From: a virus
Taxonomy: Duplodnaviria; Heunggongvirae; Uroviricota; Caudoviricetes
DNA: 39,288 nucleotides
Reading direction: 5' to 3' (one strand)
IMG/VR virus record: IMGVR_UViG_2740892273_000013
A program made the position numbers and the translations under genes. This document shows, piece after piece, positions 1-39,100 of the stretch. Below the pieces are notes generated by a model. That model saw only the letters and a program-made list of their open reading frames with translations, was not told the DNA's origin and searched no databases. The stretch's first letter is position 1, and every line of letters starts with the position of its first letter.

Positions 1-573
1 ATGTTTTGCGAAGAAAAAGTAGCTCAAATGGCTGCATACCTACTTCTTAAGCGAGGTGGGCGCATGGCATATCTGAAATTGATGAAGCTGCTCTATCTGT
101 CTAACCGCAAGTCGATTTTGAAGCATGGCAGGATGATCGGCGAAGATAGCCTTTACTCTATGAAATTTGGTCCAGTCATGTCGAATACGCTGAACTTGAT
201 TCGTGGTAAGGCTGAAGGTATTGGTGACTACTGGTACAACCTGATAGAGACGAACGGGCATGATGTGTTGTTGCGTTCAGATCCGAGGGAAATGGATGCA
301 GACGAGGTCTTTGATGAGTTGAGCCGTGCAGATATCCGGATTTTAGATGAAATCTATTCTCTGTATGGGCATATGAACCGATTTGATCTCGCAAACATGA
401 CGCATTTAGAAAGCGTTTGTCCAGAGTGGCACAATCCTGGCAATTCTCGTAAGCCTATAGACCTGAAAGAAATGCTGATCAGTGAGGGTAAAAGCGAGGA
501 TGAGGCTAATCGTATAATTGGCAAAATGGAAGAATCTCAGAAACTTAAGGAATTTTCTTTGCAATTATCATGA
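1..573 (+). CDS. Panacea/DUF4065-like protein (SocA/GepA-type antitoxin-like domain); may be 5' truncated by the window edge
   Basis: ORF starts at base 1; translation has a K/L-rich helix (AYLKLMKLLYLSN) and GPV motif recalled as typical of DUF4065; stop overlaps the next ORF start (ATGA at 570-573). Confidence 0.45.
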   Translation: MFCEEKVAQMAAYLLLKRGGRMAYLKLMKLLYLSNRKSILKHGRMIGEDSLYSMKFGPVMSNTLNLIRGKAEGIGDYWYNLIETNGHDVLLRSDPREMDADEVFDELSRADIRILDEIYSLYGHMNRFDLANMTHLESVCPEWHNPGNSRKPIDLKEMLISEGKSEDEANRIIGKMEESQKLKEFSLQLS

Positions 574-989
574 CGGATTATCAGCCATACAGGAAAGGAA
601 CTGTGCTTGCCCCAACTGGGCCATGCAATCATCTTCATGTGATTTGTAATGATCCTGTTTATTACCCCGTTAACGATTGTTATTGTGTTTTAGTTGTTAA
701 TATTTCTAGTATCAAGGATGGTGTCCCCCACGATCCGTCTTGCGTCTTGAATTCTGGTGATCATCGCTTTATCAAGCATCCAAGTTATGTTGTTTACGCT
801 GAAGCTATAATTTGGCGAGTGGATAACATGGTTAGAAAGCAGCGATCGGGTGAGATTTCCGTTCATGATGATATGCCAGAAGCTACATTCAATAGAATTC
901 TGGACGGTTTTGATATATCTGATGAAGTTACGCCAAAGAACCTTAAATTTAAAAATAAATATTGCGTATCATCTATTGATGATGAGTAA
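570..989 (+). CDS. Hypothetical 139-aa protein translationally coupled to the DUF4065-like gene; candidate toxin/effector partner
   Basis: ATGA start/stop overlap with upstream ORF; no family recognised from the translation. Confidence 0.4.
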   Translation: MTDYQPYRKGTVLAPTGPCNHLHVICNDPVYYPVNDCYCVLVVNISSIKDGVPHDPSCVLNSGDHRFIKHPSYVVYAEAIIWRVDNMVRKQRSGEISVHDDMPEATFNRILDGFDISDEVTPKNLKFKNKYCVSSIDDE

Positions 990-1028
990 ACAACAGGAAT
1001 TGTTTCGGTATAGCTTCTGGAGTTTTCT

Positions 1029-1202
1029 ATGGAAGATCAAAAAGCAACCAAGCCACAGGTTAAGTTCGACACAATGAAAGCATTCGCAGGTATGGGTGCT
1101 GCTGTTGAAGTTCTGATGAAGGCTGCTCCTAATGCGTTCACTCACGCTACTGTCTCTGGTAAAGAGCAGCAGGGTAAGCTTCGTCGTCGCAAAGCAGCAT
1201 GA
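1029..1202 (+). CDS. Small hypothetical protein (57 aa), last gene of the plus-strand cassette
   Basis: ATG at 1029 with GGAG upstream, in-frame stop at 1200-1202, terminator hairpin immediately downstream; below the 60-aa cut-off of the ORF track. Confidence 0.3.
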   Translation: MEDQKATKPQVKFDTMKAFAGMGAAVEVLMKAAPNAFTHATVSGKEQQGKLRRRKAA

Positions 1203-1223
1203 TCATAGCTGGTGCTTTTTGAA

Positions 1224-1250
1224 AACCCGCCTTTAGGCGGGTTTTTTCTT
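1224..1250. terminator. Bidirectional intrinsic terminator between convergent genes
   Basis: Stem AACCCGCC / GGCGGGTT with loop TTTA followed by a T-run on the plus strand; A-run precedes it, so it also reads as hairpin plus U-tract on the minus strand. Confidence 0.6.
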
Positions 1251-1531
1251 TAGTGATGTTCTTTGCCCTTCTGTTTGCCTGTTCTGACCTGTTCCCACTC
1301 GATACGTCCTTCTTCTCGTCTTTTGTCTATGTATTCCGCAAGATCCTGAATATTGATGCAACGTTTTGCTTTTTGTGATGTACCGATGCGATATGTAGGT
1401 ACAGGCAACTTACAAGCGTTTGCTTTTGCTTCTGCTGTGGCTGGACTCATACCAAAGTATTTTTGACTAACTGCTGAGAGTTCAATGTTTGGGGTATTGA
1501 ATTCAGCCATCAGTAAAAACAAGGTATTCAT
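1250..1531 (-). CDS. Small DNA-binding protein, excisionase/PrtN/AlpA-like (putative Xis)
   Basis: 93-aa ORF with GGAG 7 nt upstream of ATG at 1531; basic HTH-like translation; sits where xis is expected in the leftward operon. Confidence 0.45.
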   Translation of the reverse strand: MNTLFLLMAEFNTPNIELSAVSQKYFGMSPATAEAKANACKLPVPTYRIGTSQKAKRCINIQDLAEYIDKRREEGRIEWEQVRTGKQKGKEHH

Positions 1532-1567
1532 ATCATTTCTCCATCATAACCGGCTGCACCCGGTGAG

Positions 1568-2350
1568 TTACTTATTCATTTCAATAATATTATTTTCTAT
1601 CATTGATTTATTTAAAACCAAAGAAGGAGCAAGATGGTTGTCTATTTTAAACAATGCATAACTTTTAAACTGTTGGTGATATCCGTAACTAATAAGGATG
1701 CTAGAAAAATCTCTTAATTCATCTTCTTTTAAAAAATTAAAATGAAATGGGTTGTCACCATTTATGAACAATGAAACATCTATTATGCAGTATTTCTCTC
1801 CGTTGTCATTTGCATAGAAAAAAATATAAGACATTCTGTTTGTTAAGACAATGCCATTAAATTTTCTTATGTCTGTAGCTATTTTGTTTTCCATGTTTGG
1901 TGCTACATATTTATTTTCAGAAATACATTTAATTTCATCTCCAGATGTCGTGATTATATAAAAATGAAACTTATCAGAAATATCTAACTTAACTACGCCA
2001 TCATTATTGTAAAGGCTGCTAAATTTTGGTGGTTCAACTTTTAAAGAATCATAGTTCTTTAAAAGAAGAGGGGAGTCAAATTTAATAACTTGTAGTATCC
2101 CTTTACCTTCAACCTCCATATTGATTGAAGATATAGCAATTGCATTATCTCTTTTATTATTCAGGATTATGGTTGATATATGCATGTCATATATTCTACT
2201 TGCATTTGCTGAATACGACACTGTCACCTTTTTTGATATTTTTTGCACGCCAAAATATATAGTGAAGGCAGCGGCAAGAATAGATAAGAATTTAATGTCA
2301 AATAAGGACCATAGCCACATTAGTTGCTCAATTGCTTCAGAGTTAATCAT
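1568..2350 (-). CDS. AT-rich accessory gene encoding a membrane-anchored protein of unknown function; start uncertain (ATG candidates at 2383, 2362, 2350; track ORF begins at an alternative TTG at 2401)
   Basis: Long minus-strand ORF in a visibly AT-rich segment; N-terminal hydrophobic helix (LMWLWSLFDIKFLSILAAAFTIYFGV); promoter-like TTGCAA-N15-TATATA just upstream on the minus strand. Confidence 0.5.
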   Translation of the reverse strand: MINSEAIEQLMWLWSLFDIKFLSILAAAFTIYFGVQKISKKVTVSYSANASRIYDMHISTIILNNKRDNAIAISSINMEVEGKGILQVIKFDSPLLLKNYDSLKVEPPKFSSLYNNDGVVKLDISDKFHFYIITTSGDEIKCISENKYVAPNMENKIATDIRKFNGIVLTNRMSYIFFYANDNGEKYCIIDVSLFINGDNPFHFNFLKEDELRDFSSILISYGYHQQFKSYALFKIDNHLAPSLVLNKSMIENNIIEMNK

Positions 2351-2538
2351 TTGCTTTACCATTATCGCTGTAATACAACACATGTGTGTATATATACGCA
2401 ATGCAATTATTTTGCAAGTGCTTCATTTACTATCAATAGCTACGTCACGTTATTGTTTAATGGTTCTTTATAGGGGCGGCAATAGTTAAAATTATCGCTT
2501 CCGTAAATGCCCCCGCAGGGGCATTTGCAGTAATGAAA

Positions 2539-3363
2539 TCAGGCGGTGAAAGTACCAATAAAGGTTTCTACTTTGCTGTCTTTGAATTTCTCAACAAGCA
2601 GATCACGAAATTCGTTAGCCATTTCTTCCTGTACCGCTTCCAGCTGAATAATGCGCAGAACCAGTACAGGACGATCGCCAGTGATAATGCTGAGGCGTAA
2701 TTTAAACGGACGTTCTTTCAGACCTTCAAACGGAACGCATTTAAATTCAAATGCCACTGGCATAATGTCTTTGGTCTTCGCTTCGACAGACTCCATCAGG
2801 GAGCGTTTGCCGCTGAAGTCATTATCTTCAAAATCAGCGGTCTGGTTCGCTTCAATTGTGATTTTACGGATCGCCGCAGCCGCTTTGGTTGCCTGAATGG
2901 CGTCACCATTAGCATCAAAGCCCACAAGGTAGTCGGCCCAGTCTTCAATCCATTCTGCCAGTGACTTCTGGGAGTTACGCTCGCCATTAACAGACAACAG
3001 AGCAGAGAACGGAGCTGTCTTTTTCAGTTTGAGAGTGGCGGTGTTATCTGCGTGACCTGGTTCATCAATAGTACCCAGGTTAAGAACACTGACGGCACGC
3101 ATATTATCAGCATCGATAAAGCAGCGGGTGCCTTCATCTGCAAGATCTTTAGAATAACGAGTAAAGTCATCGATGCTGGCAGTGGAAAGCGCACCACGGA
3201 AACGGAAACGATTTAAATTTAATTTTTCCAGATCATGAATGCGGAAATTCTCAGGCAATGCCACAGCATCGGCACCAATCTTACTGATAATTTCATTAAC
3301 ACCCTGAGCAGAAATAAGGGCATGGATTTGATTAATTGCGGTTGCGTCTAAGTTCTGAGACAT
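2539..3363 (-). CDS. DUF2303-like (YfdQ-family) phage protein
   Basis: 274-aa ORF with GAGGA 9 nt upstream of ATG; family assignment recalled from memory (length matches YfdQ), unverified. Confidence 0.55.
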
Positions 3364-3428
3364 AATAAGTCCTCACTATATAAAGATATTCAGTGATGAG
3401 ATAAATAATCGGTTAATTAAGAACGATA

Positions 3429-3791
3429 TTAATGACCTGCTGCGCGGAGTTTTCCGTCAGGTTCACCGGCAAGAGTCAGTAATTGTCCCTGGTCTTCCTG
3501 CAGAATAGTCAGGCGACCACCGCGATTGACATACATCGGCGTTTCGGTGGTGTCTTCTTCGGAAATTTTCCCGCGGTTAGTCGGGCGAACATATGAGAGT
3601 TTGTGTTTGATTTTCACACGGTTCTCATCAAATGGTTCGATTTCCAGGTTGAGTGAGACCTTACCTTTGGTTTTCGTGTTCATCACACCGGAAGCGACTT
3701 CACTGAGAACTGCGCCGATTTTGGTTTCAAATACGCCGCCGTCCAGCTCCCCAATAAATGCCTGCACATCAGTACTGCGTTCGCTAGCCAT
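3429..3791 (-). CDS. Hypothetical 120-aa protein (possibly YfdP-like), first gene of the leftward early operon
   Basis: ATG at 3791 (MASERS...) with AGGAG 8 nt upstream; the longer track ORF to 3977 crosses a structured leader and is unlikely to be translated. Confidence 0.5.
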   Translation of the reverse strand: MASERSTDVQAFIGELDGGVFETKIGAVLSEVASGVMNTKTKGKVSLNLEIEPFDENRVKIKHKLSYVRPTNRGKISEEDTTETPMYVNRGGRLTILQEDQGQLLTLAGEPDGKLRAAGH

Positions 3792-3840
3792 TTTGCTGCT
3801 CCTAATCATATCGACCCTGCAAGGTCGGTTGGTTTCTCCA

Positions 3841-3938
3841 CAAAACAGAGAAGAACACCTGCGGTGGCAGCCGCCCGGATGGATTTGGTTATGAGCCCGT
3901 CGTCCGGTGATGCTCTTCTCTGTTTTGTAAAAAGAGCG
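3841..3938 (-). promoter_or_regulatory. Structured leader element: boxA-like motif followed by a large stem-loop formed by a 14-bp perfect inverted repeat; candidate nut-like or attenuator site
   Basis: Minus-strand CGCTCTTTTTACAA (3925-3938); arms CAAAACAGAGAAGA (3841-3854) and TCTTCTCTGTTTTG (3914-3927) are exact reverse complements. Confidence 0.35.
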
Positions 3939-4411
3939 GTACCAGCCGGAAGCAAGTGTACAAACTGGTACCGCCAAAGCAGTGGCTGTTGTGGTGACCG
4001 GTGCTGATCTCCGGCTTGCGGTTATTTCAGACTCTCACGGGCGTTTAATTGCCCCGCCGAACAGCTCTTTTCCGCATTAGCTGCAATGTCTTTCGCGCAT
4101 CAGCCTGCGCATTCACCACAACGCTGAGAGCACTTAGCCAGTTACGGCACCACACTTTGTCGCGGTTCCATAAATGTCCTCATCGTTGCACCCTGGTCTC
4201 TTCCCAGGCGTCAAACCGAATCGCCACGCTGGTTAGGCGTCTTATCAGCATCATCATTGACTTGCACATTCCGGCTACCTGGTTTGTTTGCCCGAGCAAG
4301 GAGTGGATTGTCCCCTTTAACGTCCCCAGACCGCTAACGACGCATGTGCCATACGCCGTGTTACAACCAAATTTTGTTTAATCTTGCCTGTGCTGTGTTT
4401 CTTTTAGATAC

Positions 4412-4439
4412 ATTATGTATCCCAAAGGTACATTGTCAA
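4412..4439 (-). promoter_or_regulatory. PL-like early-left promoter with overlapping OL-like operator
   Basis: Minus strand reads TTGACA (4434-4439), 16-bp spacer, CATAAT (4412-4417); spacer carries ATGTATCCCAAAGGTACAT (4415-4433), related to the operators at the cI-cro interval. Confidence 0.5.
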
Positions 4440-4442
4440 GTA

Positions 4443-4464
4443 TAAAAAAACCTGCCGAAGCAGG
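4443..4464 (-). terminator. Intrinsic terminator downstream of the repressor gene
   Basis: Hairpin CCTGC-CGAA-GCAGG (4451-4464) followed on the minus strand by a run of U (complement of A-run 4444-4450). Confidence 0.55.
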
Positions 4465-4477
4465 TTATAAATATTGA

Positions 4478-5152
4478 TTAGGCCTTTATTATGTATCTTC
4501 TTGGTTTTCCTGAGAAAATCACTGTACCAATTATAGAGCAATTACCGTTAATCTTAATGTAAGGCTCAGGCCAGTTTGGGTTTAATGCTTTGAGATAACG
4601 CTGTGTTCCATCTTCTATCAACCGCTTGAAGGTGGTTTCGCCTGTATCGTGCATCAATGCAATAACGTCGTCACCGTGGCAGGCAGGGACTTCAGGATCA
4701 ACAAAAATCATGTCTCCCGGGCGGTACTCATCAATCATTGAATCACCAATCACCCGCAAGATATAAGTCATTTCGCCACAGGGTACAGGGCAGGGATAAG
4801 TTTCTGCTGTGCTCAAATCAACCTCAGAATAGCCAACTTCTTTCCATGCTCCGGCCTGTACCCATGATATGACAGGGACTAACGTTATTTGTTTGTTAGT
4901 GATTGAAACGTCAGGTTTTTTTGTGATGTTCGTTGTCTGGTGTTCTTGATCAAGCCATCCGACAGGCAGGTCGAAACATTTTTCGATGTGCCGTGCCATG
5001 CTGTCACCGATATTTTTAGTTGCACCATCTCCCATAAACCTGCTGGTCTGGGTTGGCTCGCGATCAATCATGGTGGCAAAGGAAGAATTCCCGCCAACAC
5101 CATCTCTCAGTTTTCTGGCGTTAGACCGCCGGATGTCATGGACTGTTTTCAT
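4478..5152 (-). CDS. cI: CI-type prophage repressor (N-terminal HTH, C-terminal LexA-like S24 peptidase domain)
   Basis: 224-aa translation with GDSM serine motif and downstream Lys; divergent from a cro-like gene; no SD before the ATG, consistent with a leaderless PRM-type transcript. Confidence 0.85.
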   Translation of the reverse strand: MKTVHDIRRSNARKLRDGVGGNSSFATMIDREPTQTSRFMGDGATKNIGDSMARHIEKCFDLPVGWLDQEHQTTNITKKPDVSITNKQITLVPVISWVQAGAWKEVGYSEVDLSTAETYPCPVPCGEMTYILRVIGDSMIDEYRPGDMIFVDPEVPACHGDDVIALMHDTGETTFKRLIEDGTQRYLKALNPNWPEPYIKINGNCSIIGTVIFSGKPRRYIIKA

Positions 5153-5158
5153 AAAGAA

Positions 5159-5187
5159 ATTAAAACCTTTGTACCGATAAGGTACAA
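5159..5187 (-). promoter_or_regulatory. PRM-like promoter for leaderless cI with overlapping operator
   Basis: Minus strand TTGTAC (5182-5187), 17-bp spacer, TTTAAT (5159-5164), placing the start about 7 nt downstream at the cI ATG; operator TTGTACCgataaGGTACAA at 5169-5187. Confidence 0.45.
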
Positions 5188-5192
5188 GTATC

Positions 5193-5238
5193 TTGAAGGT
5201 TCATCTCAATCATGTAATATGTATACCGGAGGTACATA
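5193..5238 (+). promoter_or_regulatory. PR-like promoter for cro with a second operator-like palindrome over the cro RBS
   Basis: TTGAAG (5193-5198), 16-bp spacer, TAATAT (5215-5220); TGTATACC-GGA-GGTACATA at 5220-5238. Confidence 0.45.
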
Positions 5239-5242
5239 TTGT

Positions 5243-5443
5243 ATGAAAGCGTATTGGGACTCTTTAACCAAAGAACAGCAGGGTGAGTTGGCCGGAAAAG
5301 TTGGCTCAACACCAGGCTACTTACGGCTGGTTTTCAATGGTTATAAAAAAGCCAGTTTTGTGCTGGCTAAAAAACTTGAGCAATGCACGTCAGGTGCAAT
5401 TACGAAATCTGACTTAAGACCGGATATCTATCCGAAAGATTAA
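5243..5443 (+). CDS. Cro/YdaS-like small HTH regulator
   Basis: 66-aa ORF with GGAGG 9 nt upstream; position divergent from cI. Confidence 0.7.
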   Translation: MKAYWDSLTKEQQGELAGKVGSTPGYLRLVFNGYKKASFVLAKKLEQCTSGAITKSDLRPDIYPKD

Positions 5444-5474
5444 CAGAACACCTTCAATTTTTAACCACAGAACG

Positions 5475-6038
5475 ATGAGGCTAACCGTGGGTAAGCATCA
5501 CTGGAAAGTAGAAAAACAGCCTGAGTGGTACGTGAAAGCTGTCAGAAAAACTATCGCGGCGTTGCCGGGGGGTTACGCTGAAGCTGCTGAGTGGCTGGAT
5601 GTAACAGAGAACGCTTTATTCAACCGCCTTCGTGCAGATGGCGATCAGATTTTCCCGCTGGGATGGGCAATGATTTTACAGCGCGCGGCTGGCACTCACT
5701 ACATTGCGGATGCTGTCGCACAGTCTGCTGGTGGGGTGTTTGTATCGCTTCCTGAAATTGAGGAAGTAGAGAACGCCGATATAAACCAGCGCCTGCTGGA
5801 AGTCATCGAACAGATCGGGAGTTACTCAAAGCAGATTCGTTCGGCAATCGAAGATGGGGTAGTGGAGCCACACGAGCAGACAGCAATTAATGATGAGTTG
5901 TATCTGTCAATTTCGAAGCTCCAGGAGCATGCAGCACTGGTCTACAAAATCTTTTGCGCTCCAGAAAAGAGTGACGCCCGCGAGTGTGCAGCTCCGGGCG
6001 TCGTGGCGTTTTGTGTCTGTGGAGAAACTAACGCATGA
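5475..6038 (+). CDS. YdaT-like or CII-position early regulator (hypothetical)
   Basis: 187-aa ORF directly after cro; family name recalled from memory and unverified. Confidence 0.4.
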   Translation: MRLTVGKHHWKVEKQPEWYVKAVRKTIAALPGGYAEAAEWLDVTENALFNRLRADGDQIFPLGWAMILQRAAGTHYIADAVAQSAGGVFVSLPEIEEVENADINQRLLEVIEQIGSYSKQIRSAIEDGVVEPHEQTAINDELYLSISKLQEHAALVYKIFCAPEKSDARECAAPGVVAFCVCGETNA

Positions 6039-6871
6039 ACAGTTTAACGGCAAATAACCGTTTGTCGCAACAGCTGGTGGTCAGCGTCGCTGAACACCTG
6101 TTGTTACGGCATGAATGCAGATTACCAAATCACCTGGCTGTAAGTAACCACAGAGAACTTTACCTGACTGTGGGGGGCGAGTTGTGCAGGAACTTAACCG
6201 CTGGTTTCGTGACGGAAGAGGACTTTATGTTCATGTTATTCGTTGGGAGCCAGAAACACAGCGCGTTATCTATCTTCGCAAAGACTACCCGCATGAGTGC
6301 TTTAGTCCTTTGTGGAAATTCAGGCGTGATTTTGTTGAGTGTGAAGGACCACCAGCACATTGATTCTGCCATTCCGGGACGTTACACTGTTCAGGCACCT
6401 TATAAAGCGGGTGCCGGGATTGGCGTCCTGGAATTGATCAAGGCGATATATGACGCGCCAGCGTCTTTTTTATCGTCCGCATTTGCTCACATCAAAGTTA
6501 TGGTGGGCTGGGCGGGGGCATCGAAAGATGCGCCGGTTTCCTTGATCACCGGTTACGCCAACCCCGTTCAGTTCACCACCAGCGAAATTGGCGTTTCCGG
6601 TGGTGGAAGTATTTCACCGATCAAGGAGGCTGCCATCATGGCTACTGTCCCAGCCCTCACTCGTCTGAATGATGAAGACTTACATAAACTCAGTTATGTA
6701 ACAACTGCACTACGTGCTCTGCGCAAGGTAACTCTTTCGGATCCGCAGGCACATCAGGTTCTGGTAGAAACCCTTCTTAACTTGCAAGCTGAACGTATTC
6801 GTCTGGCGGATAAGGCTAATTTTCATATTCACCGTCTCCTGAATATCAGCGGAGGGCATCGTCATGCTTAA
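6035..6871 (+). CDS. Hypothetical protein (278 aa)
   Basis: ATGA overlap with upstream gene suggests translational coupling; no recognisable motif. Confidence 0.4.
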   Translation: MNSLTANNRLSQQLVVSVAEHLLLRHECRLPNHLAVSNHRELYLTVGGELCRNLTAGFVTEEDFMFMLFVGSQKHSALSIFAKTTRMSALVLCGNSGVILLSVKDHQHIDSAIPGRYTVQAPYKAGAGIGVLELIKAIYDAPASFLSSAFAHIKVMVGWAGASKDAPVSLITGYANPVQFTTSEIGVSGGGSISPIKEAAIMATVPALTRLNDEDLHKLSYVTTALRALRKVTLSDPQAHQVLVETLLNLQAERIRLADKANFHIHRLLNISGGHRHA

Positions 6872-10598: not shown

Positions 10599-11594
10599 GT
10601 GACCGTGAGAGCACTACTGACCCCTGAAATTGCCCCGCGTATGGGGATCGTATTGTTCAGGCCAGGTTCAGAGCTGATGCCCCTGTTTATGCAGGGGCGT
10701 GTTCTGCTGGAGCCTGAGCCGGAACGTTATTCATCTTTCGCCAGTGGTGCCGTTCCGGCGGCATCACAACCGCTGGCGGATGATCCTGCCGTTCGGGCCG
10801 TGTTCCGCAATGAGGCAGTGATCCGTCGTGCTGGTGGCGTGGAATGTCTTGAAAGCTGGTTACTTCGTGAAAAAGGCTGCCAGTGGCCTCATTCCGACTG
10901 GCACAGCGAGAACATGACCACAATGCGACACGCTCCGGGCGCAATCCGTCTGTGCTGGCACTGCGATAACCAGCTGCGCGATCAGTTCACGGAACGGCTG
11001 GAATCAATGGCAACGGATAACTGTGCCCGCTGGGTGTTGTCTGTTGTGCGTCGGGATCTCGGTTTTGATGATAGTCACGTTGTGACAATGCCGGAACTGT
11101 GCTGGTGGCTGATTCGTAATGACCTGGCGGATGCCTTACCGGAAAGTGCAGCCCGTAAGGCACTGAGATTACCAAAGCCTGTTGTGCCGTCTGTCACCCG
11201 GGAAAGTGACCTTGTGCCTTCGGTTCCTGCCACCAGCATCATCCAGGATAAGGCAAAAAAGGTGCTGGCGCTGAAAGTGGATCCGGAGTCGCCGGAGTCT
11301 TTTATGTTACGCCCAAAACGCCGCCGCTGGGTTAATGAAAAGTACACGCGCTGGGTTAAGACACAGCCGTGTGCATGTTGTGGAAAGCCTGCTGATGATC
11401 CCCACCACCTGATAGGCCACGGTCAGGGTGGAATGGGTACAAAAGCGCATGACCTCTTTGTGTTGCCTTTGTGCAGAAAGCATCACGACGAGCTGCATGC
11501 GGATACCGTGGCATTTGAAGAGAAGTATGGCTCCCAGCTGGAGCTGATATTTCGTTTTATCGATCGTGCGCTGGCAATTGGCGTATTGGCGTAA
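10599..11594 (+). CDS. DUF968-like protein with C-terminal Cys/His zinc-binding (HNH-like) motif
   Basis: GTG start abutting upstream stop; C-terminal CACCGK...HH...CRKHH pattern. Confidence 0.5.
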   Translation: MTVRALLTPEIAPRMGIVLFRPGSELMPLFMQGRVLLEPEPERYSSFASGAVPAASQPLADDPAVRAVFRNEAVIRRAGGVECLESWLLREKGCQWPHSDWHSENMTTMRHAPGAIRLCWHCDNQLRDQFTERLESMATDNCARWVLSVVRRDLGFDDSHVVTMPELCWWLIRNDLADALPESAARKALRLPKPVVPSVTRESDLVPSVPATSIIQDKAKKVLALKVDPESPESFMLRPKRRRWVNEKYTRWVKTQPCACCGKPADDPHHLIGHGQGGMGTKAHDLFVLPLCRKHHDELHADTVAFEEKYGSQLELIFRFIDRALAIGVLA

Positions 11595-11607
11595 GTGGAG
11601 AACGAGC

Positions 11608-12360
11608 ATGAACCTTGAAGCCTTACCAAAATATTACTCCCCAAAATCTCCAAAATTGAGCGATGACGCACCGGCGACAGGCTCAGGTGGTTTAACGATT
11701 ACGGATGTGATGGCTGCGCAGGGGATGGTGCAGTCGAAAGCACCGCTTGGGTTTGCCTTATTCCTGGCAAAAGTTGGTGTTCAGGATCCTCAATTTGCGA
11801 TTGAAGGTCTGCTCAATTACGCGATGGCACTGGATAACCCGACATTGAACAAATTGAGTGAAGAAACCCGGTTACAGATCATCCCTTACCTTGTGAATTT
11901 TGCCTTTGCTGATTATTCCAGGTCTGCGGCAAGTAAGGCTCGCTGTGAGCATTGTGCTGGTACTGGATTTCATAATGTATTGCGCGAAGTGGTGAAACAC
12001 TCCAGAAGCGGGGAATCTGTTATCAAGGAAGAGTGGGTGAAGGAACTATGTCAGCATTGCCATGGTAAGGGAGAAGTCAGCACAGCGTGCAGAGGGTGTA
12101 AGGGTAAAGGTATTGTCCTGGATGAAAAAAGAACCCGGCTTCATGGTGTGCCTGTTTATAAGATTTGTGGGCGTTGCAATGGCAACCGGTTTAGCCGTTT
12201 ACCAACCACACTGGCGCGGCATCATGTCCAGAAACTGGTACCGGACCTGACGGATTATCAGTGGTACAAAGGATATGCAGACGTTATTAATAAACTGGTT
12301 ACAAAGTGCTGGCAGGAAGAAGCGTATGCTGAATCGCAATTGAGAAAAGTGACAAGATAG
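11608..12360 (+). CDS. Q: Late-gene antiterminator Q
   Basis: 250-aa translation with multiple CxxC zinc-finger motifs; located directly before a late promoter and short terminated transcript. Confidence 0.75.
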   Translation: MNLEALPKYYSPKSPKLSDDAPATGSGGLTITDVMAAQGMVQSKAPLGFALFLAKVGVQDPQFAIEGLLNYAMALDNPTLNKLSEETRLQIIPYLVNFAFADYSRSAASKARCEHCAGTGFHNVLREVVKHSRSGESVIKEEWVKELCQHCHGKGEVSTACRGCKGKGIVLDEKRTRLHGVPVYKICGRCNGNRFSRLPTTLARHHVQKLVPDLTDYQWYKGYADVINKLVTKCWQEEAYAESQLRKVTR

Positions 12361-12391
12361 ATAATTTTCGCCGAAGATGTCGACGTGATAC

Positions 12392-12420
12392 TTGCATTTT
12401 TCAAAAAATATGGATAAGAT
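12392..12420 (+). promoter_or_regulatory. PR'-like late promoter (qut region expected here)
   Basis: TTGCAT (12392-12397), 17-bp spacer, TAAGAT (12415-12420), about 60 nt upstream of a strong terminator. Confidence 0.5.
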
Positions 12421-12467
12421 TTTCTCAACGATGGGCCTTGTATGTCTACCGTTGGTAAATGTCAAAA

Positions 12468-12490
12468 ACCCGCCGCTGAGCGGGTTTTTT
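12468..12490 (+). terminator. tR'-like intrinsic terminator
   Basis: Stem ACCCGC / GCGGGT with loop CGCTGA followed by TTTTTT. Confidence 0.7.
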
Positions 12491-12648
12491 GTGCCTGATG
12501 TCTCATGAAACTATGAAATGGATTGGTGCGTTAAACATTTTTTCTTATTATCTTTTAGATTTTGGAGAGATGGTTAACGTCTGTATTCCAGAAACTCGAT
12601 GGTTATTTAATAAATTAGTTTCAATGATGCTTCTAGGTTATGACTGTA

Positions 12649-13065
12649 ATGAAAAAGGTATTAATAGCAGCGATAGGTTTTTGTTTAGTTGGTTGTGCAG
12701 GTATGAAATTACCTGAGTATTCGCAAGTTAAAGCAAGTCCGTATTATACAGATTGCCGTGCGTTTGCCATGGATGTTTATAAAAATGATGGATACAGCAA
12801 AATTGCGAAAACTACTATCCTTAGCATGGATGATGTGAAAGCTAGATATATTGTGACAGGGTGTGTAGTTGCTATGGGGAAAAACACTGTAGAGGAAATC
12901 AAAGCTGATCTCTCTGCTAAAGGGAGTTCTTTTGGGCTTATCAGTGGAGCTTGTTCTAGTGCGGCATGTCGGGTTGATGTAGAGCAGCAAATGAACGCTT
13001 ATGTACTTGGTAGTTATTATGCTGCAAATAAAAAATTCCCGGATAAAATGAAAGCAGAGTTTTAA
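12649..13065 (+). CDS. Lipoprotein of unknown function encoded by an AT-rich inserted gene
   Basis: Signal peptide with lipobox LVGC (MKKVLIAAIGFCLVGCAG); AT-rich codon usage; flanked by two near-identical terminators. Confidence 0.6.
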   Translation: MKKVLIAAIGFCLVGCAGMKLPEYSQVKASPYYTDCRAFAMDVYKNDGYSKIAKTTILSMDDVKARYIVTGCVVAMGKNTVEEIKADLSAKGSSFGLISGACSSAACRVDVEQQMNAYVLGSYYAANKKFPDKMKAEF

Positions 13066-13143
13066 GCAAACCTTGTTTTCGATTATATGTCGAAGATAAA
13101 TGTTAGTAACGGCATAATAAGTAAATATATAGCTGTGATAGCA

Positions 13144-13166
13144 ACCCGCCACTGAGCGGGTTTTTT
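13144..13166 (+). terminator. Second copy of the tR'-like terminator
   Basis: ACCCGCCACTGAGCGGGTTTTTTGT, near-identical to 12468-12490. Confidence 0.65.
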
Positions 13167-13288
13167 GTACCCGTAAACTTGGTGCAGTACAGTAAACACG
13201 CTGGTGGTCGTGAATACTGACTTTTTATCTTGCTGGCTTTTTAGACAAGAGTTATTGGTATGTCATGTTAACCAGAAGGGAAAAAGAC

Positions 13289-13642: not shown

Positions 13643-14695
13643 ATGAAAAATACTGTAAAAATAAACAGTGTTGATTTAATCAACGCTGATTGCCTGCATT
13701 TTATTCAGTCCCTGCCTGATGATTCCATTGACCTGATTGTTACCGATCCGCCTTACTTCAAGGTGAAACCCAACGGTTGGGACAATCAGTGGAAAGGGGA
13801 CGAAGATTACCTTAAGTGGCTGGACCACTGTCTGGCCCAGTTCTGGCGGGTGTTGAAACCTGCCGGAAGCCTTTACCTGTTCTGTGGGCATCGCCTGGCA
13901 TCTGATATTGAGATCATGATGCGTGAACGTTTCAACGTGCTTAACCATATCATCTGGGCGAAGCCGTCCGGACGTTGGAATGGGTGTAATAAAGAAAGTC
14001 TGCGCGCATATTTTCCTGCCACAGAGCGCGTTCTGTTTGCTGAACATTACCAGGGGCCATATCGCGGCAAAAGTGACGGCTATGCGGCAAAAGAAAGGGA
14101 ACTCAAACAGCACATAATGGCACCGCTGATATCGTATTTCAGGGATGCTCGTGCCGAACTGGGTATAACGGCAAAACAAATTGCCGAAGCCACAGGTAAG
14201 AAAAATATGGTTTCCCACTGGTTTGGTGCCAGTCAGTGGCAGTTGCCGAATGAGGCTGACTATCGGAAGTTACAGGCACTGTTTTCCCGTATAGCGGCAG
14301 AGAAGTTTCAGGAACAACAACTGGAACAACCACACCACCAGCTGGTGGCATCTTATGATTCACTGAATCGTAAATATTCTGAATTGCTGGATGAGTTTAA
14401 ATCTCTCCGGCGCTATTTCTCCGTATCAGTCTCCGTGCCTTATACCGATGTCTGGATGCATAAACCCGTTCAGTTCTACCCGGGGAAACATCCGTGTGAG
14501 AAACCGGCGGATATGCTCAGGCAAATAATCAATGCCAGTAGTCGACCAGGTGATCTGGTTGCTGATTTTTTTATGGGATCCGGTTCCACAATAAAAGCAG
14601 CAATGGCGCTGGGGCGTCGGGCCTTAGGTGTTGAGCTTGAGTCAGAGCGGTTTAATCAGACAGTGAAAGAGATAAACGAGCTGGTGGGGAAATAA
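13643..14695 (+). CDS. DNA methyltransferase, N6-adenine/N4-cytosine type with motif order IV then I (orphan)
   Basis: DPPY near the N-terminus and FxGxG (FFMGSGST) near the C-terminus; no adjacent endonuclease. Confidence 0.7.
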
Positions 14696-32128: not shown

Positions 32129-35100
32129 ATGGGTAAAGGCAGCAGTAAGGGGCATACCCCGCGCGAAGCAAAGGACAACCTGAAGTCCACGCAGTTGCTG
32201 AGTGTGATCGATACCATCAGCGAAGGGCCGGTTGAAGGTCCGGTGGATGGATTAAAAAGCGTGCTGCTGAACAGTACACCGGTGCTGGACAGTGAGGGGA
32301 ATACCAACATCTCTGGTGTCACGGTGGTGTTCCGGGCAGGTGAGCAGGAACAGACACCGCCGGAGGGATTTGAATCATCAGGTTCCGAGACGGTACTGGG
32401 TACGGAAGTGAAATACGACACGCCGATCACCCGGACCATCACGTCGGCAAACATTGACCGTCTGCGCTTTACCTTCGGTGTGCAGGCACTGGTGGAAACC
32501 ACCTCAAAGGGGGACAGGAATCCGTCGGAAGTCCGCCTGCTGGTTCAGATACAACGTAATGGTGGCTGGGTGACGGAAAAAGACATCACCATTAAGGGCA
32601 AAACCACCTCGCAGTATCTGGCCTCGGTGGTGGTGNNNNNNNNNNNNNNNNNNNNNNNNNNNNNNNNNNNNNNNNNNNNNNNNNNNNNNNNNNNNNNNNN
32701 NNNNNNNNNNNNNNNNNNNNNNNNNNNNNNNNNNNNNNNNNNNNNNNNNNNNNNNNNNNNNNNNNNNNNNNNNNNNNNNNNNNNNNNNNNNNNNNNNNNN
32801 NNNNNNNNNNNNNNNNNNNACAGCGGTATCTGGGACGGAACGTTTAAGCCAGCATACAGCAACAACATGGCCTGGTGTCTGTGGGATATGCTGACCCATC
32901 CGCGCTACGGCATGGGGAAACGTCTTGGTGCGGCGGATGTGGACAAATGGGCGCTGTATGTCATCGGCCAGCATTGCGATCAGTCGGTGCCGGACGGTTT
33001 TGGCGGCACGGAGCCGCGCATCACCTGTAATGCGTACCTGACCACACAGCGCAAGGCGTGGGATGTGCTCAGTGATTTCTGCTCGGCGATGCGCTGTATG
33101 CCGGTATGGAACGGGCAGACGCTGACGTTCGTGCAGGACCGACCATCAGATAAGGTGTGGACCTATAACCGCAGTAATGTGGTGATGCCGGATGATGGTG
33201 CGCCGTTCCGCTACAGCTTCAGCGCCCTGAAGGACCGCCATAATGCCGTTGAGGTGAACTGGATTGACCCGAATAACGGCTGGGAGACGGCGACAGAGCT
33301 TGTGGAGGACACGCAGGCCATTGCCCGTTACGGTCGTAACGTCACGAAGATGGATGCTTTTGGCTGTACCAGCCGGGGGCAGGCACACCGCGCCGGGCTG
33401 TGGCTGATTAAAACAGAACTGCTGGAAACGCAGACCGTGGACTTCAGCGTGGGTGCCGAAGGGCTTCGCCATGTACCGGGCGATGTCATTGAAATCTGCG
33501 ATGATGACTATGCCGGTATCCGCACCGGCGGGCGCGTGCTGGCGGTAAACAGCCAGACCCGGACGCTGACGCTCGACCGTGAAATCACGCTGCCATCTTC
33601 CGGCACCACGCTGATAAGCCTGGTTGACGGGCAGGGGAGTCCGGTCAGCGTGGAGGTTCAGTCCGTCACCGACGGCGTGAAGGTGAAAGTGAGCCGTGTT
33701 CCTGACGGCGTTGCTGAATACAGCGTATGGGGGCTGAAGCTGCCGACGCTGCGCCAGCGCCTGTTCCGCTGCGTGAGTATCCGTGAGAACGACGACGGCA
33801 CGTATGCCATCACTGCCGTGCAGCATGTACCGGAAAAAGAGGCCATCGTGGATAACGGGGCGCACTTTGACGGCGACCAGAGCGGCACGGTAAATGGTGT
33901 CACGCCGCCAGCGGTGCAGCACCTGACCGCAGAAGTCACCGCAGACAGCGGGGAATACCAGGTGCTGGCCCGCTGGGACACGCCGAAGGTGGTGAAGGGC
34001 GTGAGCTTCCTGCTTCGCCTGACCGTGGCAGCGGATGACGGCCGTGAGCGGCTGGTCAGCACGGCCCGGACGACGGAAACCACTTACCGCTTCACACAAC
34101 TGGCGCTGGGGAACTACAGGCTGACAGTCCGGGCAGTAAATGCGTGGGGGCAGCAGGGCGATCCGGCGTCGGTATCGTTCCGGATTGCCGCACCGGCAGC
34201 GCCGTCGCGGATTGAGCTGACGCCGGGCTATTTTCAGATAACCGCCACGCCGCATCTTGCGGTTTATGACCCGACGGTACAGTTTGAGTTCTGGTTCTCG
34301 GAAAAACGGATTGCGGATATCAGGCAGGTTGAAACCACAGCCCGCTACCTTGGCACGGGGCTGTACTGGATAGCCGCCAGTATCAATATTAAGCCGGGCC
34401 ATGATTATTACTTTTATATCCGCAGTGTGAACACCGTCGGCAAATCAGCATTCGTGGAGGCTGTCGGTCGGGCGAGCGATGATGCGGAAGGTTACCTGGA
34501 TTTTTTCAAAGGCCAGATAACCGAATCCCATCTCGGCCAGGAGCTGCTGGAAAAAGTCGACCTGACGGAGGATAACGCCAGCAGACTGGAGGAGTTTTCG
34601 AAAGAGTGGAAGGACGCCAACGATAAGTGGAATGCCATGTGGGGCGTCAAAATTGAGCAGACCAAAGACGGCAAACATTATGTCGCGGGTATTGGCCTCA
34701 GCATGGAGGACACGGAGGAAGGCAAACTGAGCCAGTTTCTGGTTGCCGCTAACCGTATCGCGTTTATTGACCCGGCAAACGGGAATGAAACGCCGATGTT
34801 TGTGGCGCAGGGCAACCAGATATTCATGAATGACGTGTTCCTGAAACGCCTGACGGCTCCCACCATTACCAGCGGTGGAAATCCGCCGGCATTTTCCCTG
34901 ACACCAGACGGAAAGCTGACCGCTAAAAATGCGGATATCAGCGGTAATGTGAATGCAAATTCAGGGACGCTCAACAATGTCACGATTAACCAGAACTGTA
35001 CGATTAAGGGCATGCTGGAGGCGACCCAGGTCAGAGGAGATTTCGTTAAAGCTGTATCAAAAGCCTTCCCGAAAAAAGTCGGTACGTGGGGTAACACGGA

Positions 35101-35537: not shown

Positions 35538-36137
35538 ATGCGTAAACTTTATGCCGCCATTTTGTCCGCAGCCATTTGTCTGGCCGTATCCGGTGCGCCT
35601 GCATGGGCGTCTGAACATCAGTCCACGCTGAGCGCGGGGTATCTTCATGCCTCGACGAACGTCCCCGGCAGTGATGATCTGAACGGGATTAACGTGAAAT
35701 ACCGTTATGAGTTTACGGACACACTGGGGATGGTGACGTCGTTCAGCTATGCAGGAGACAAGAATCGCCAGCTGACCCGTTACAGCGATACCCGCTGGCA
35801 TGAAGATTCCGTTCGTAACCGCTGGTTCAGCGTAATGGCGGGGCCGTCTGTGCGCGTGAATGAATGGTTCAGCGCGTATGCGATGGCGGGTGTGGCTTAC
35901 AGCCGTGTGTCGACTTTCTCCGGGGATTATCTTCGCGTAACTGACAACAAGGGGAAAACGCACGATGTGCTGACCGGAAGTGATGACGGTCGCCACAGCA
36001 ACACGTCTCTGGCGTGGGGAGCTGGCGTGCAGTTTAACCCGACCGAATCCGTGGCCATTGATATTGCTTATGAAGGCTCCGGCAGTGGCGACTGGCGCAC
36101 TGACGGTTTCATCGTGGGTGTCGGTTATAAATTCTGA
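35538..36137 (+). CDS. lom: Lom/Ail/PagC-family outer-membrane beta-barrel protein
   Basis: Signal peptide (AVSGAPAWA), alternating beta-strand pattern and C-terminal aromatic residue (GVGYKF); position between J and stf as in lambda. Confidence 0.8.
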   Translation: MRKLYAAILSAAICLAVSGAPAWASEHQSTLSAGYLHASTNVPGSDDLNGINVKYRYEFTDTLGMVTSFSYAGDKNRQLTRYSDTRWHEDSVRNRWFSVMAGPSVRVNEWFSAYAMAGVAYSRVSTFSGDYLRVTDNKGKTHDVLTGSDDGRHSNTSLAWGAGVQFNPTESVAIDIAYEGSGSGDWRTDGFIVGVGYKF

Positions 36138-36195: not shown

Positions 36196-39100
36196 GTGAA
36201 TATGGCAGTAAAGATTTCAGGTGTACTGAAAGACGGCACAGGAAAACCGGTACAGAACTGCACAATCCAGCTGAAAGCAAAACGTAACAGCACCACGGTG
36301 GTGGTGAACACGCTGGCCTCAGAAAATCCGGATGAAGCCGGGCGTTACAGCATGGACGTTGAGTACGGTCAGTACAGCGTTATTCTGTTGGTGGAAGGAT
36401 TCCCGCCGTCACATGCCGGGACCATCACCGTGTATGAAGATTCCCGACCCGGTACGCTGAATGATTTTCTCGGTGCCATGACGGAGGATGATGCCCGTCC
36501 GGAGGCNNNNNNNNNNNNNNNNNNNNNNNNNNNNNNNNNNNNNNNNNNNNNNNNNNNNNNNNNNNNNNNNNNNNNNNNNNNNNNNNNNNNNNNNNNNNNN
36601 NNNNNNNNNNNNNNNNNNNNNNNNNNNNNNNNNNNNNNNNNNNNNNNNNNNNNNNNNNNNNNNNNNNNNNNNNNNNNNNNNNNNNNNNNNNNNNNNNNNN
36701 NNNNNNNNNNNNNNNNNNNNNNNNNNNNNNNNNNNNNNNNNNNNNNNNNNNNNNNNNNNNNNNNNNNNNNNNNNNNNNNNNNNNNNNNNNNNNNNNNNNN
36801 NNNNNNNNNNNNNNNNNNNNNNNNNNNNNNNNNNNNNNNNNNNNNNNNNNNNNNNNNNNNNNNNNNNNNCGTCGGCTCAGGAGGCTTTTTCCAGCGCAGG
36901 AACGGCATCAGCAAAAGCCTCTGAGGCATCAAAAAGTGCTGCCGCTGCAGAGTCCTCAAAAAGCGCGGCGGCCACCAGTGCCGGTGCGGCGAAAACGTCA
37001 GAAACGAATGCGGCAGCGTCACAACAATCAGCTGCCACTTCTGCATCCACCGCGACCACGAAAGCGTCAGAAGCAGCCACCTCAGCCAGAGATGCGTCGG
37101 CTTCAAAAGAGGCGGCAAAATTATCAGAAACGAGCGCAGCTTCGAGCGCCAGTAATGCCGCTTCCTCGGCAACGGCGGCAGGAAATTCCGCGAAGGCGGC
37201 AAAGACGTCTGAGACAAACGCTAAGTCCTCTGAAACGGCAGCAGCACAGAGTGCCTCCGCAGCAGCAGGCTCAAAAACAGCGGCTGCGTCGTCTGCCAGT
37301 GCAGCGTCAACAAGTGCCGGGCAGGCCTCAGCCAGTGCTAGCGCCGCCGGAAAATCGGCAGAAAGCGCCGCATCGTCCGCTTCAACAGCCACAACGAAGG
37401 CTGGCGAAGCCACTGAACAGGCCAGTGCAGCAGCGAGGTCTGCTTCCGCAGCGAAGACATCGGAGACGAACGCGAAAGCGTCGGAGACCAGCGCAGAATC
37501 CTCAAAAACGGCTGCCGCATCGTCCGCCAGTTCGGCGGCGTCATCGGCATCATCGGCGTCTGCTTCAAAAGATGAGGCGACCAGACAAGCGTCCGCAGCG
37601 AAGGGCAGCGCCACGACAGCATCCACGAAGGCGACAGAGGCTGCTGGCAGTGCGACGGCGGCAGCACAGAGCAAAAGTACGNNNNNNNNNNNNNNNNNNN
37701 NNNNNNNNNNNNNNNNNNNNNNNNNNNNNNNNNNNNNNNNNNNNNNNNNNNNNNNNNNNNNNNNNNNNNNNNNNNNNNNNNNNNNNNNNNNNNNNNNNNN
37801 NNNNNNNNNNNNNNNNNNNNNNNNNNNNNNNNNNNNNNNNNNNNNNNNNNNNNNNNNNNNNNNNNNNNNNNNNNNNNNNNNNNNNNNNNNNNNNNNNNNN
37901 NNNNNNNNNNNNNNNNNNNNNNNNNGAACAACATTAACGCGGTCAGTAAAACAGACTTTGCTGATAAGCGTGGTATGCGTTATGTGCGGGTTAACGCTCC
38001 TGCAGGTGCAACATCTGGAAAATATTACCCTGTTGTTGTTATGCGTTCTGCTGGCTCAGTAAGCGAACTGGCATCAAGGGTCATTATCACCACGGCAACG
38101 CGAATCGCAGGCGATCCGATGAATAACTGCGAGTTTAACGGATTTGTTATGCCTGGTGGCTGGACTGACAGGGGGCGTTATGCTTATGGAATGTTCTGGC
38201 AATATCAAAACAATGAACGAGCCATCCACTCAATAATGATGAGTAATAAGGGCGATGATTTGCGCTCTGTGTTCTATGTTGATGGCGCTGCTTTCCCTGT
38301 TTTTGCGTTTCTCGAAGATGGCCTGTCAATATCCGCACCTGGTGCTGATCTCGTTGTTAATGATACGACCTATAAGTTTGGGGCAACAAATCCGGCGACT
38401 GAATGTATCGCGGCGGACGTTATCCTTGATTTTAAGAGTGGGCGTGGTTTTTATGAGTCTCATTCGTTAATCGTTAACGATAACTTGTCGTGCAAAAAAC
38501 TTTTTGCCACAGACGAAATTGTAGCGCGTGGTGGTAATCAGATTCGAATGATAGGTGGGGAGTATGGTGCATTATGGCGTAATGATGGCGCTAAAACTTA
38601 CCTGCTGCTTACCAATCAAGGTGATGTTTATGGTGGCTGGAATACATTAAGACCGTTTGTTATTGATAACGCAACCGGCGAACTGGTTATTGGAACCAAA
38701 CTGTCTGCAAGTCTGAACGGTAACGCATTGACAGCAACAAAGCTGCAAACGCCAAGACTGGTTTCTGGTGTTGAGTTTGATGGTTCCAAAGATATTACTT
38801 TAACCGCCGCGCATGTGGCTGCTTTTGCCAGAAGGGCAACGGATACATATGCCGATGCGGATGGTGGCGTTCCATGGAATGCCGAATCAGGCGCTTACAA
38901 TGTCACCCGCTCTGGCAACAGCTATATTCTGGTTAACTTCTATACCGGAGTCGGAAGTTGCCGGACCTTGCAGATGAAGGCGCATTACAGAAATGGTGGT
39001 CTGTTCTACCGTTCTTCAAGAGACGGTTATGGTTTTGAGGAAGACTGGGCAGAAGTTTATACCTCGAAAAATCTTCCACCAGAAAGCTACCCAGTCGGTG

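Follow-up and report, generated by a model that had tools for sequence, protein, structure and literature searches.

An AT-rich replacement cassette in a lambdoid prophage

The DNA analysed here is IMG/VR record IMGVR_UViG_2740892273_000013 (hereafter the window, meaning the whole stretch of 39,288 nucleotides, nt), an apparently intact lambdoid prophage of Escherichia coli in which head, tail and lysis genes are present and which ends within a tail-fibre gene. Near its left end, in the slot between the excisionase gene xis and the early-left gene yfdQ, lies an AT-rich cassette with an open reading frame (ORF) for a membrane-anchored protein of 260 amino acids (aa), the target gene of this study. 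This is a bona fide, selected and mobile cargo gene. The cassette, its gene and the repeat at its left border are as follows.

1549-1564: small inverted repeat (ACCGG-N6-CCGGT) in the xis leader, at the left recombination joint
1564-2488: AT-rich replacement cassette, comprising the ORF and 138 nt of upstream non-coding DNA, transferred as one unit
1568-2350, minus strand: coding sequence of the 260-aa membrane-anchored protein (MINSE...), TAA stop included; phrog_14996

The original prediction had described this segment as a strikingly AT-rich island, which is borne out by a sliding calculation of guanine plus cytosine (GC) content. The cassette has a GC content of 29.8%, compared with 51.1% for the window (standard deviation 5.6%, from windows of 925 base pairs, bp, that are free of N); this corresponds to z = -3.8 and is the minimum of the window. 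The ORF itself has a GC content of 29.0%, and at third codon positions the value is 26%, compared with 43-54% in the neighbouring genes. The next-lowest value in the window, 37.7%, lies at about 12.3 kb. A still lower value near 36.4 kb was rejected as an artefact of runs of N. Such runs are found at 32636-32819, 36507-36869 and 37682-37925 (791 bases), inside tail and tail-fibre genes, and they mimic extreme AT-richness where scans count N in the denominator.

The joints of the cassette are sharp. Similarity to related phages ends exactly at position 1563 and returns at about 2489-2496; the sequences of PhiR47_1, mEp460 and SKA5 are identical to the window up to 1563 and unrelated past it. 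Among 5,426 complete E. coli genomes the cassette was found in 99, at 100% coverage and 95.7-100% identity, in single copy and always on the chromosome, while its flanks were found in about 2,750 E. coli genomes and in many phages. In the relatives sampled, which were PhiR47_1, SKA5, mEp460 and four genomes of E. coli, ordinary early-left genes fill the slot: yfdR (an HD 5'-deoxynucleotidase), an eaE-like gene, ea22 or a DUF551 gene, and a 3'-5' exonuclease gene, with a PAPS reductase gene present in some. In strain KE51 the prophage at this site encodes an identical Xis but lacks the target gene and has yfdR...exo instead. The event was therefore not a simple insertion: the cassette replaces about 2.5 kb and stands where the early-left yfdR...exo genes would be, between xis and yfdQ. 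Horizontal acquisition, which had been suggested from composition, is well supported by the sharp joints, by a slot that otherwise holds other genes, by the presence of the cassette in only 99 of the 5,426 genomes and by the low GC content of its homologues. No Rfam family matched within or near the cassette.

The comparison with complete genomes covered 1200-2600 only; over this stretch E. coli O25b:H4 (NZ_CP015085) shows 100% identity, as do nine others. Two more cassette-bearing genomes were inspected; the dusA-type prophage is the same in both, but its PanAT allele is another one (157 + 182 aa). Between E. coli alleles the ORF diverges by about 4%, compared with 2-3% in the flanks, and the ratio of nonsynonymous to synonymous substitution rates (dN/dS) is 0.24-0.46, with the reading frame unbroken in all alleles examined for this ratio. 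In strain E89 (NZ_CP121157) the cassette is interrupted by IS1X2, and in strain B19374 (NZ_CP142915) three short hypothetical proteins are annotated in the region, one of them a 108-aa fragment. These two are occasional inactivations among the 99 carriers.

The encoded protein and its predicted topology

The ORF had originally been drawn at 1568-2401. That open frame is real and begins at a TTG, but the true start is the ATG at 2350, because the phrog_14996 profile and all homologues begin there. The Shine-Dalgarno sequence of the ORF is weak. The product corresponds to the RefSeq hypothetical protein WP_047654657. An AlphaFold model, run with a family alignment of 100 sequences, reached a mean predicted local distance difference test score (pLDDT) of 94 and a predicted template modelling score (pTM) of 0.82. 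The parts of the protein are listed in order from the N-terminus.

Residues 4-16: amphipathic helix of the N-terminal tail, ahead of the membrane helix (AlphaFold)
2237-2296, minus strand: codons of the membrane helix, residues 19-38, IKFLSILAAAFTIYFGVQKI (AlphaFold and hydropathy)
1916-2227, minus strand: immunoglobulin (Ig)-like beta-sandwich, residues 42-145 (AlphaFold)
1571-1885, minus strand: C-terminal alpha/beta domain, residues 156-260, the fastest-diverging part

A protein of about 260 aa with one N-terminal transmembrane helix had been predicted from the sequence, and both hydropathy and the AlphaFold helix at residues 19-38 agree with this. The window protein has a single hydrophobic helix (Kyte-Doolittle maximum 1.68, residues 13-31), and a second strongly hydrophobic stretch appears in just one of the 100 aligned family members. 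In the model the beta-sandwich and the alpha/beta domain are joined by a poorly ordered linker, and the alpha/beta domain has no recognisable relative. Residues conserved across the family are K37, N65, K/R67, D68, P94, K98, S111, C142 and Y179, most of which (N65 to C142 in this list) are held by the beta-sandwich; they form no recognisable catalytic set. Mean column identity is 0.43 in the membrane helix, 0.42 in the sandwich and 0.32 in the C-terminal domain. That the helix is conserved like the sandwich suggests a role for it beyond anchoring.

The flank that follows the helix is more positive than the flank that precedes it in 94 of the 100 relatives, with a mean net charge of +2.0 vs -0.9. 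By the positive-inside rule this places the globular domains in the cytoplasm. The predicted topology, read from this charge bias, is thus a periplasmic N-terminal tail of about 18 residues, one membrane helix and two cytoplasmic globular domains.

A widespread family without assigned function

The window protein matches phrog_14996, a family without assigned function, over the full length of the profile (E = 2.4e-178, profile positions 1-260 of 260). A word-indexed search recovered just 11 clusters, from E. coli/Shigella, Citrobacter and Klebsiella. An exhaustive profile search recovered 221 representatives at 50% identity, most of which, among the matches listed, are 230-280 aa long and share the same architecture. 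The family extends across the Gammaproteobacteria, with named members from Buttiauxella, Pantoea, Raoultella, Providencia, Vibrio, Marinomonas, Pseudomonas and Acinetobacter. A scan of genome contigs found one locus.

Searches of the window protein against Pfam and NCBIfam gave no match, and the 100 relatives gave no meaningful match in Pfam. The family profile found nothing among the sequences of the PDB. Against PADLOC-DB v2.0.0, the window protein matched nothing at E <= 0.1 and the Pseudomonas and Acinetobacter relatives matched nothing at E <= 0.01. Nevertheless, the gene is real and under selection, since some 221 clusters keep the same length and architecture, dN/dS is 0.24-0.46 and the structural model is confident.

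Genomic contexts of the relatives

Homologues have a GC content of 28-37%, compared with 30-59% in their flanks, and lie below both flanks at every locus, Pseudomonas included; on two AT-rich Acinetobacter plasmids the homologue is merely 2-4 points under one flank. Their locations are varied. In Citrobacter and IMG/VR contigs the homologue lies immediately upstream of xis and the integrase gene, at prophage ends, in a P4-like satellite and in CP4-like islands, a context that parallels the window. In lambdoid and podovirus-like prophages of Klebsiella and Raoultella, its place is the replication-nin region. In one IMG/VR prophage it lies directly downstream of a complete RosmerTA system (RmrT E = 9e-26, RmrA E = 6e-107).

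Homologues in Providencia P2-like prophages sit between portal gpQ/Ogr and the replication protein GpA, and the interval between gpQ and gpA is the main defence hotspot of P2 (PMC13586616). The same study of P2 and P4 elements reported that, of eight unknown loci picked at random from the P4 hotspots, six protected against phage (PMC13586616); none of the new systems named there is similar to the window protein. In Pseudomonas P2-like prophages the homologue abuts the portal gene and is preceded by a gene for a 455-aa STAND-like ATPase with a weak match to the PADLOC candidate family PDC-S59, and one of these prophages also has RnlAB nearby. On a small Acinetobacter plasmid the homologue adjoins an HNH protein and MazEF, and on a Vibrio conjugative plasmid it lies in the cargo region near a PDC-S48-like exonuclease. 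Relatives thus occur in a defence hotspot or beside known defence systems, while for the window copy the nearby system is the PanA/PanT pair only.

A conserved two-gene system was considered and rejected, as the neighbours of the homologues are mutually unrelated: a STAND-like ATPase in Pseudomonas, HNH proteins in Acinetobacter and Buttiauxella, a 477-aa protein of unknown function in Citrobacter, and proteins of 361 and 338 aa in Providencia and Vibrio. In the Citrobacter loci (L004-L007, 6015-11011) the 477-aa protein and the 260-aa homologue belong to a fixed module that goes on with a 68-aa protein, an integrase and a 270-aa protein. The elements to the left of this module differ widely, and include a P4-like satellite and CP4-like islands that carry CbtA/CbeA. 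The module may therefore be a small integrative element in its own right, or reflect tandem integrations at a single att site.

The left arm of the prophage and signals for expression

In NZ_CP015085 the gene zur lies about 470 bp from the first gene of the window. The circular order in phage SKA5 is int, a dusA fragment (attP), the Panacea gene and then, further on, xis; the window phage is therefore one that integrates at dusA, with its integrase gene at the far end of the prophage. The features of the left arm outside the target ORF are as follows.

1-573, plus strand: PanA-like (Panacea-domain) antitoxin gene, the leftmost gene of the prophage, with a 4-nt overlap with the next ORF
570-989, plus strand: putative toxin gene, 139 aa, phrog_19071 (no assigned function)
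1250-1531, minus strand: xis (PrtN-family excisionase), 36 nt downstream of the target ORF and co-directional with it
2389-2417, minus strand: candidate sigma-70-like motif, TTGCAA (2417-2412)-N15/N17-TATATA(TA), by direct reading; 8/12 consensus
2505-2526: GC-rich hairpin, 14 nt after the yfdQ stop codon, with a 9-bp stem, in the conserved yfdQ flank
2539-3363, minus strand: yfdQ (DUF2303), upstream neighbour, in the early-left operon
3429-3791, minus strand: yfdP
4439-4412, minus strand: pL-like promoter, near-consensus TTGACA-N16-CATAAT (11/12 match), directed into the early-left operon
4478-5152: LexA-type repressor gene, beyond the pL-like promoter

The first two genes form a toxin-antitoxin pair of the PanA/PanT type about 600 bp from the target ORF, and the equivalent pair in PhiR47_1 carries the PanA/PanT annotation. 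The toxin gene is followed by a 57-aa ORF and then by a strong bidirectional terminator at 1221-1246. At the other end of the arm, the repressor gene is directly followed by a terminator-like hairpin (4466-4449) and then by the pL-like promoter; the roughly 600 nt from this promoter to yfdP are without an annotated gene.

The target gene had been credited with a promoter of its own. The TTGCAA-TATATA motif is present and is kept in an allele of 96% identity, but it matches the consensus at 8 of 12 positions, which is no better than chance. Across 1000-5500, 10 promoter-like sites were found, compared with 9.5 expected by chance, and the scan of this interval did not list the motif. Moreover, no common promoter motif was found upstream of homologues in other contexts. 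The 138-nt leader is 97.8-98.6% identical between alleles, compared with 95.4-95.9% for the ORF. Conservation of the leader was considered as evidence for a promoter and rejected: the flanking genes are equally conserved, which points to a faster-evolving ORF and not to a constrained promoter.

The AT-rich spacer between yfdQ and the ORF is 188 nt long and holds the conserved hairpin. It was predicted that this hairpin separates the gene from its upstream neighbour. The hairpin exists and is stable (the 81 nt around it fold at -21.5 kcal/mol, z = -2.5), but it ends at 2526 rather than 2525 and is not an insulator acquired with the gene. It has no T-run on either strand and was not called as a terminator. 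Its flank is common to SfV, mEp460 and PhiR47_1 and is kept despite unrelated downstream contexts in mEp460 and PhiR47_1, and in PhiR47_1 the stem shows a compensatory change from C:G to A:T. The hairpin is therefore a maintained feature of the yfdQ module which did not arrive with the cassette. Lacking a T-run, it is no canonical terminator, and may serve in RNA stability, processing or attenuation. The 36-nt gap between the ORF and xis (1568 to 1531) contains a 5-bp inverted repeat with no T-run, and no terminator was called there. Expression from pL, as one of the early-left genes, is therefore equally possible.

Function of the target gene

From its associations, the target gene may well encode a stand-alone, membrane-tethered protein for phage exclusion or abortive infection, a reading to which we would give slightly less than an even chance. 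A role in conflicts among mobile elements, of which phage defence would be the simplest, is suggested by the way the gene keeps turning up in variable slots across phages, satellites, islands and plasmids, by the presence of homologues in the established defence hotspot of two unrelated P2-like lineages, by the known defence and toxin-antitoxin modules adjacent to them, and by low GC content, patchy distribution and evolution somewhat faster than that of the flanks. Plasmid-borne homologues speak for a function independent of the lytic cycle of a phage. Superinfection exclusion or abortive infection was also the role put forward in the original prediction; the contexts of the relatives favour it, but homology to SieB, RexB or any PADLOC family was not found.

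Several points weigh against a defence function. The association rests on a handful of loci, without a background control, and the slot in E. coli normally holds lytic early-left genes and not defence systems. PADLOC-DB v2, Pfam and NCBIfam are all without a match, none of 50,697 deposited phage genomes carries the target gene, and the literature searched by protein accession and PHROG identifier, together with the DefensePredictor supplements, makes no mention of it. No effector chemistry is legible from the predicted fold. As to expression in the lysogen, the gene's own promoter, as read from the sequence, is unproven, and a constitutive promoter at this position would also transcribe xis, given that no terminator lies between them. 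DNA of 29% GC content is a typical target of H-NS silencing in E. coli, and with such a composition the target gene may be silent in the lysogen.

Three other explanations were weighed. The gene could be an early-left accessory gene driven from pL that serves the phage's own lytic growth (takeover, exclusion of competitors or counter-defence) and is silent in the lysogen. It lies in the early-left unit about 2 kb downstream of the strong pL-like promoter, runs in the same direction as yfdP, yfdQ and xis with no terminator before the latter, and occupies a slot otherwise given to genes of the ea22, eaE and exo type; the Klebsiella and Raoultella homologues belong to the early-right replication/nin region and follow the gene upstream of them at about 50-85 nt. 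However, homologues are also found on non-phage elements (small Acinetobacter plasmids, the Vibrio conjugative plasmid and CP4-like islands) and in the P2 hotspot, where the cargo is known to be active in lysogens (PMC13586616), and the 188-nt AT-rich spacer with its conserved hairpin follows yfdQ. On balance this explanation is unlikely, though it keeps appreciable weight.

A factor for lysogenic conversion or fitness unrelated to phage, such as envelope stress tolerance, colonisation or entry exclusion in conjugation, would suit a membrane protein with an Ig-like domain. Morons of this kind are frequent at prophage ends, with a Lom gene in the same window (35538-36137), and the Vibrio homologue follows a type IV secretion gene cluster. 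Globular domains that are predicted to be cytoplasmic are, however, unsuited to a role at the surface or in colonisation, the neighbours of the homologues are defence and toxin-antitoxin genes rather than virulence genes, and a spread of hosts that takes in Pseudomonas, Acinetobacter, Vibrio and E. coli argues against niche-specificity; we regard this explanation as distinctly improbable. There is a very small chance that the ORF does nothing in this prophage at present and is carried along as a passenger, silenced or in decay. The 29% GC content makes H-NS binding likely, the Shine-Dalgarno sequence is weak, and E89 has the IS1 insertion and B19374 the annotated, truncated 108-aa product; against this, the frame is intact in all alleles examined with dN/dS below 0.5, and about 221 clusters keep the length and a confidently predicted fold.

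On the favoured reading of phage exclusion or abortive infection, the horizontally exchanged cargo gene that has taken over the early-left slot between yfdQ and xis would supply an anti-phage exclusion protein at the cytoplasmic face of the inner membrane. The predicted architecture would suit a sensor and effector tethered to the membrane. Its cytoplasmic domains may bind some component of the phage while the genome enters or immediately afterwards; such a binding mode appears likeliest because there is no conserved catalytic motif and the helix is as conserved as the sandwich. Two outcomes can be envisaged. In the one slightly favoured, the helices would assemble and permeabilise the membrane, leading to abortive infection as for PdpSau or RexB. 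In the other, entry or early development would be blocked directly, as for SieA, HK97 gp15 or SNIPE-type targeting. More tentatively, and with some doubt, the protein can be proposed as the first of a hitherto unrecognised family of anti-phage proteins, each encoded by a single gene and without enzymatic activity, which prophages, satellites and plasmids have spread through the Gammaproteobacteria. Tethered to the inner membrane, with the Ig-like and alpha/beta domains in the cytoplasm, such a protein would sense phage at the site of genome entry and then block entry or collapse the membrane.

Should the gene prove protective, a compact one-gene system that PADLOC, Pfam and NCBIfam all miss would be added to the defence repertoire; should it have no protective effect, it would be one more orphan prophage gene. 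The combination of domains in the window protein is without a solved relative, and if the proposal is true the protein would offer a simple model for the detection or blocking of phage at the inner membrane by a helix and binding domains, with no enzyme. The locus also shows that the early-left 'ea' region of dusA-type lambdoid prophages is swappable wholesale for cargo, which is relevant when interpreting the prophage content of clinical E. coli such as O25b:H4.

Other features of the window

Tandem Rfam matches to isrK (64 bits; 6395-6471, plus strand) and C4 antisense RNA (82 bits; 6496-6583, plus strand) score above the gathering threshold. Both lie inside a 278-aa ORF (6035-6871). The annotated ash-family/transcriptional-regulator gene is shorter, starts about 40 nt downstream of isrK and overlaps C4 only. 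This suggests a c4-like antisense immunity element of the P1/P7 type in a lambdoid prophage.

The second-lowest GC content in the window (about 37.7%; 12250-13200, plus strand) lies between a gene for a Q-like antiterminator (11566-12360) and a DNA methyltransferase gene (13643-14695). This interval holds an ORF for 141 aa (12640-13065, plus strand; phrog_4748, no assigned function), which is likely to be another moron, at the place taken by the toxin genes in Stx phages. An outer-membrane protein of the Lom/Ail/OmpX family (phrog_108) is encoded at 35538-36137 (plus strand), between the tail and tail-fibre genes. Hairpins with a following T-run can be read from the sequence on each side of this gene, which is lom, the classical moron of lambda.

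Comparison with known systems

Lambda lom and HK97 gp15 are phage morons. Like these, the target gene is an extra gene of deviating composition between conserved genes, present or absent among otherwise collinear phages and unlike the surrounding genome. It differs in being part of a replacement of about 2.5 kb rather than a simple insertion, in having no downstream terminator of its own and in that its own promoter is unproven.

The cargo of the gpA-gpQ hotspot of P2 includes old, tin and many newer systems. Distant homologues of the window protein fill this exact slot in Providencia, and in P2-like prophages of Pseudomonas they adjoin the portal gene, whereas the window gene lies in a lambdoid prophage slot that is usually given to lytic early genes.

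Lambda SieB and RexB and P22 SieA are prophage-encoded inner-membrane proteins that exclude other phages. The gene sieB lies inside the pL operon with a promoter of its own, which is the arrangement proposed for the target gene. RexB has four membrane helices and requires RexA, whereas the window protein has one helix and no conserved partner. No match in Pfam or PADLOC places the window protein in the SieB or RexB family.

PdpSau is a membrane-anchored abortive-infection protein of Staphylococcus aureus prophages, which kills infected cells by depolarising the membrane (PMC10127798). Both are single accessory genes of prophages that replace other cargo, with an N-terminal membrane helix and a C-terminal part in the cytoplasm (predicted for the window protein). 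PdpSau comes from another phylum and its locus is next to the lysis genes. The likeness, as with RexB and SNIPE, is functional only.

The predicted layout also resembles that of SNIPE (PD-lambda-1), a membrane-bound nuclease of E. coli for which PhoA and LacZ-alpha fusions demonstrated that the N-terminus is outside and the C-terminus inside (PMC13190303). SNIPE acts at the inner membrane, at the site where phage DNA enters (PMC13190303). The window protein, of about 260 aa with a beta-sandwich and an alpha/beta domain, has no DUF4041, GIY-YIG or other catalytic domain recognisable with Pfam or PADLOC, and the two are not homologous. Nonetheless, both are encoded by a single gene on mobile DNA, and both have, by prediction in the case of the window protein, a short N-terminus in the periplasm, a single membrane helix and the body of the protein in the cytoplasm. 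If the proposed function is true, the window protein would be a nuclease-free counterpart to injection-site surveillance of the SNIPE type.

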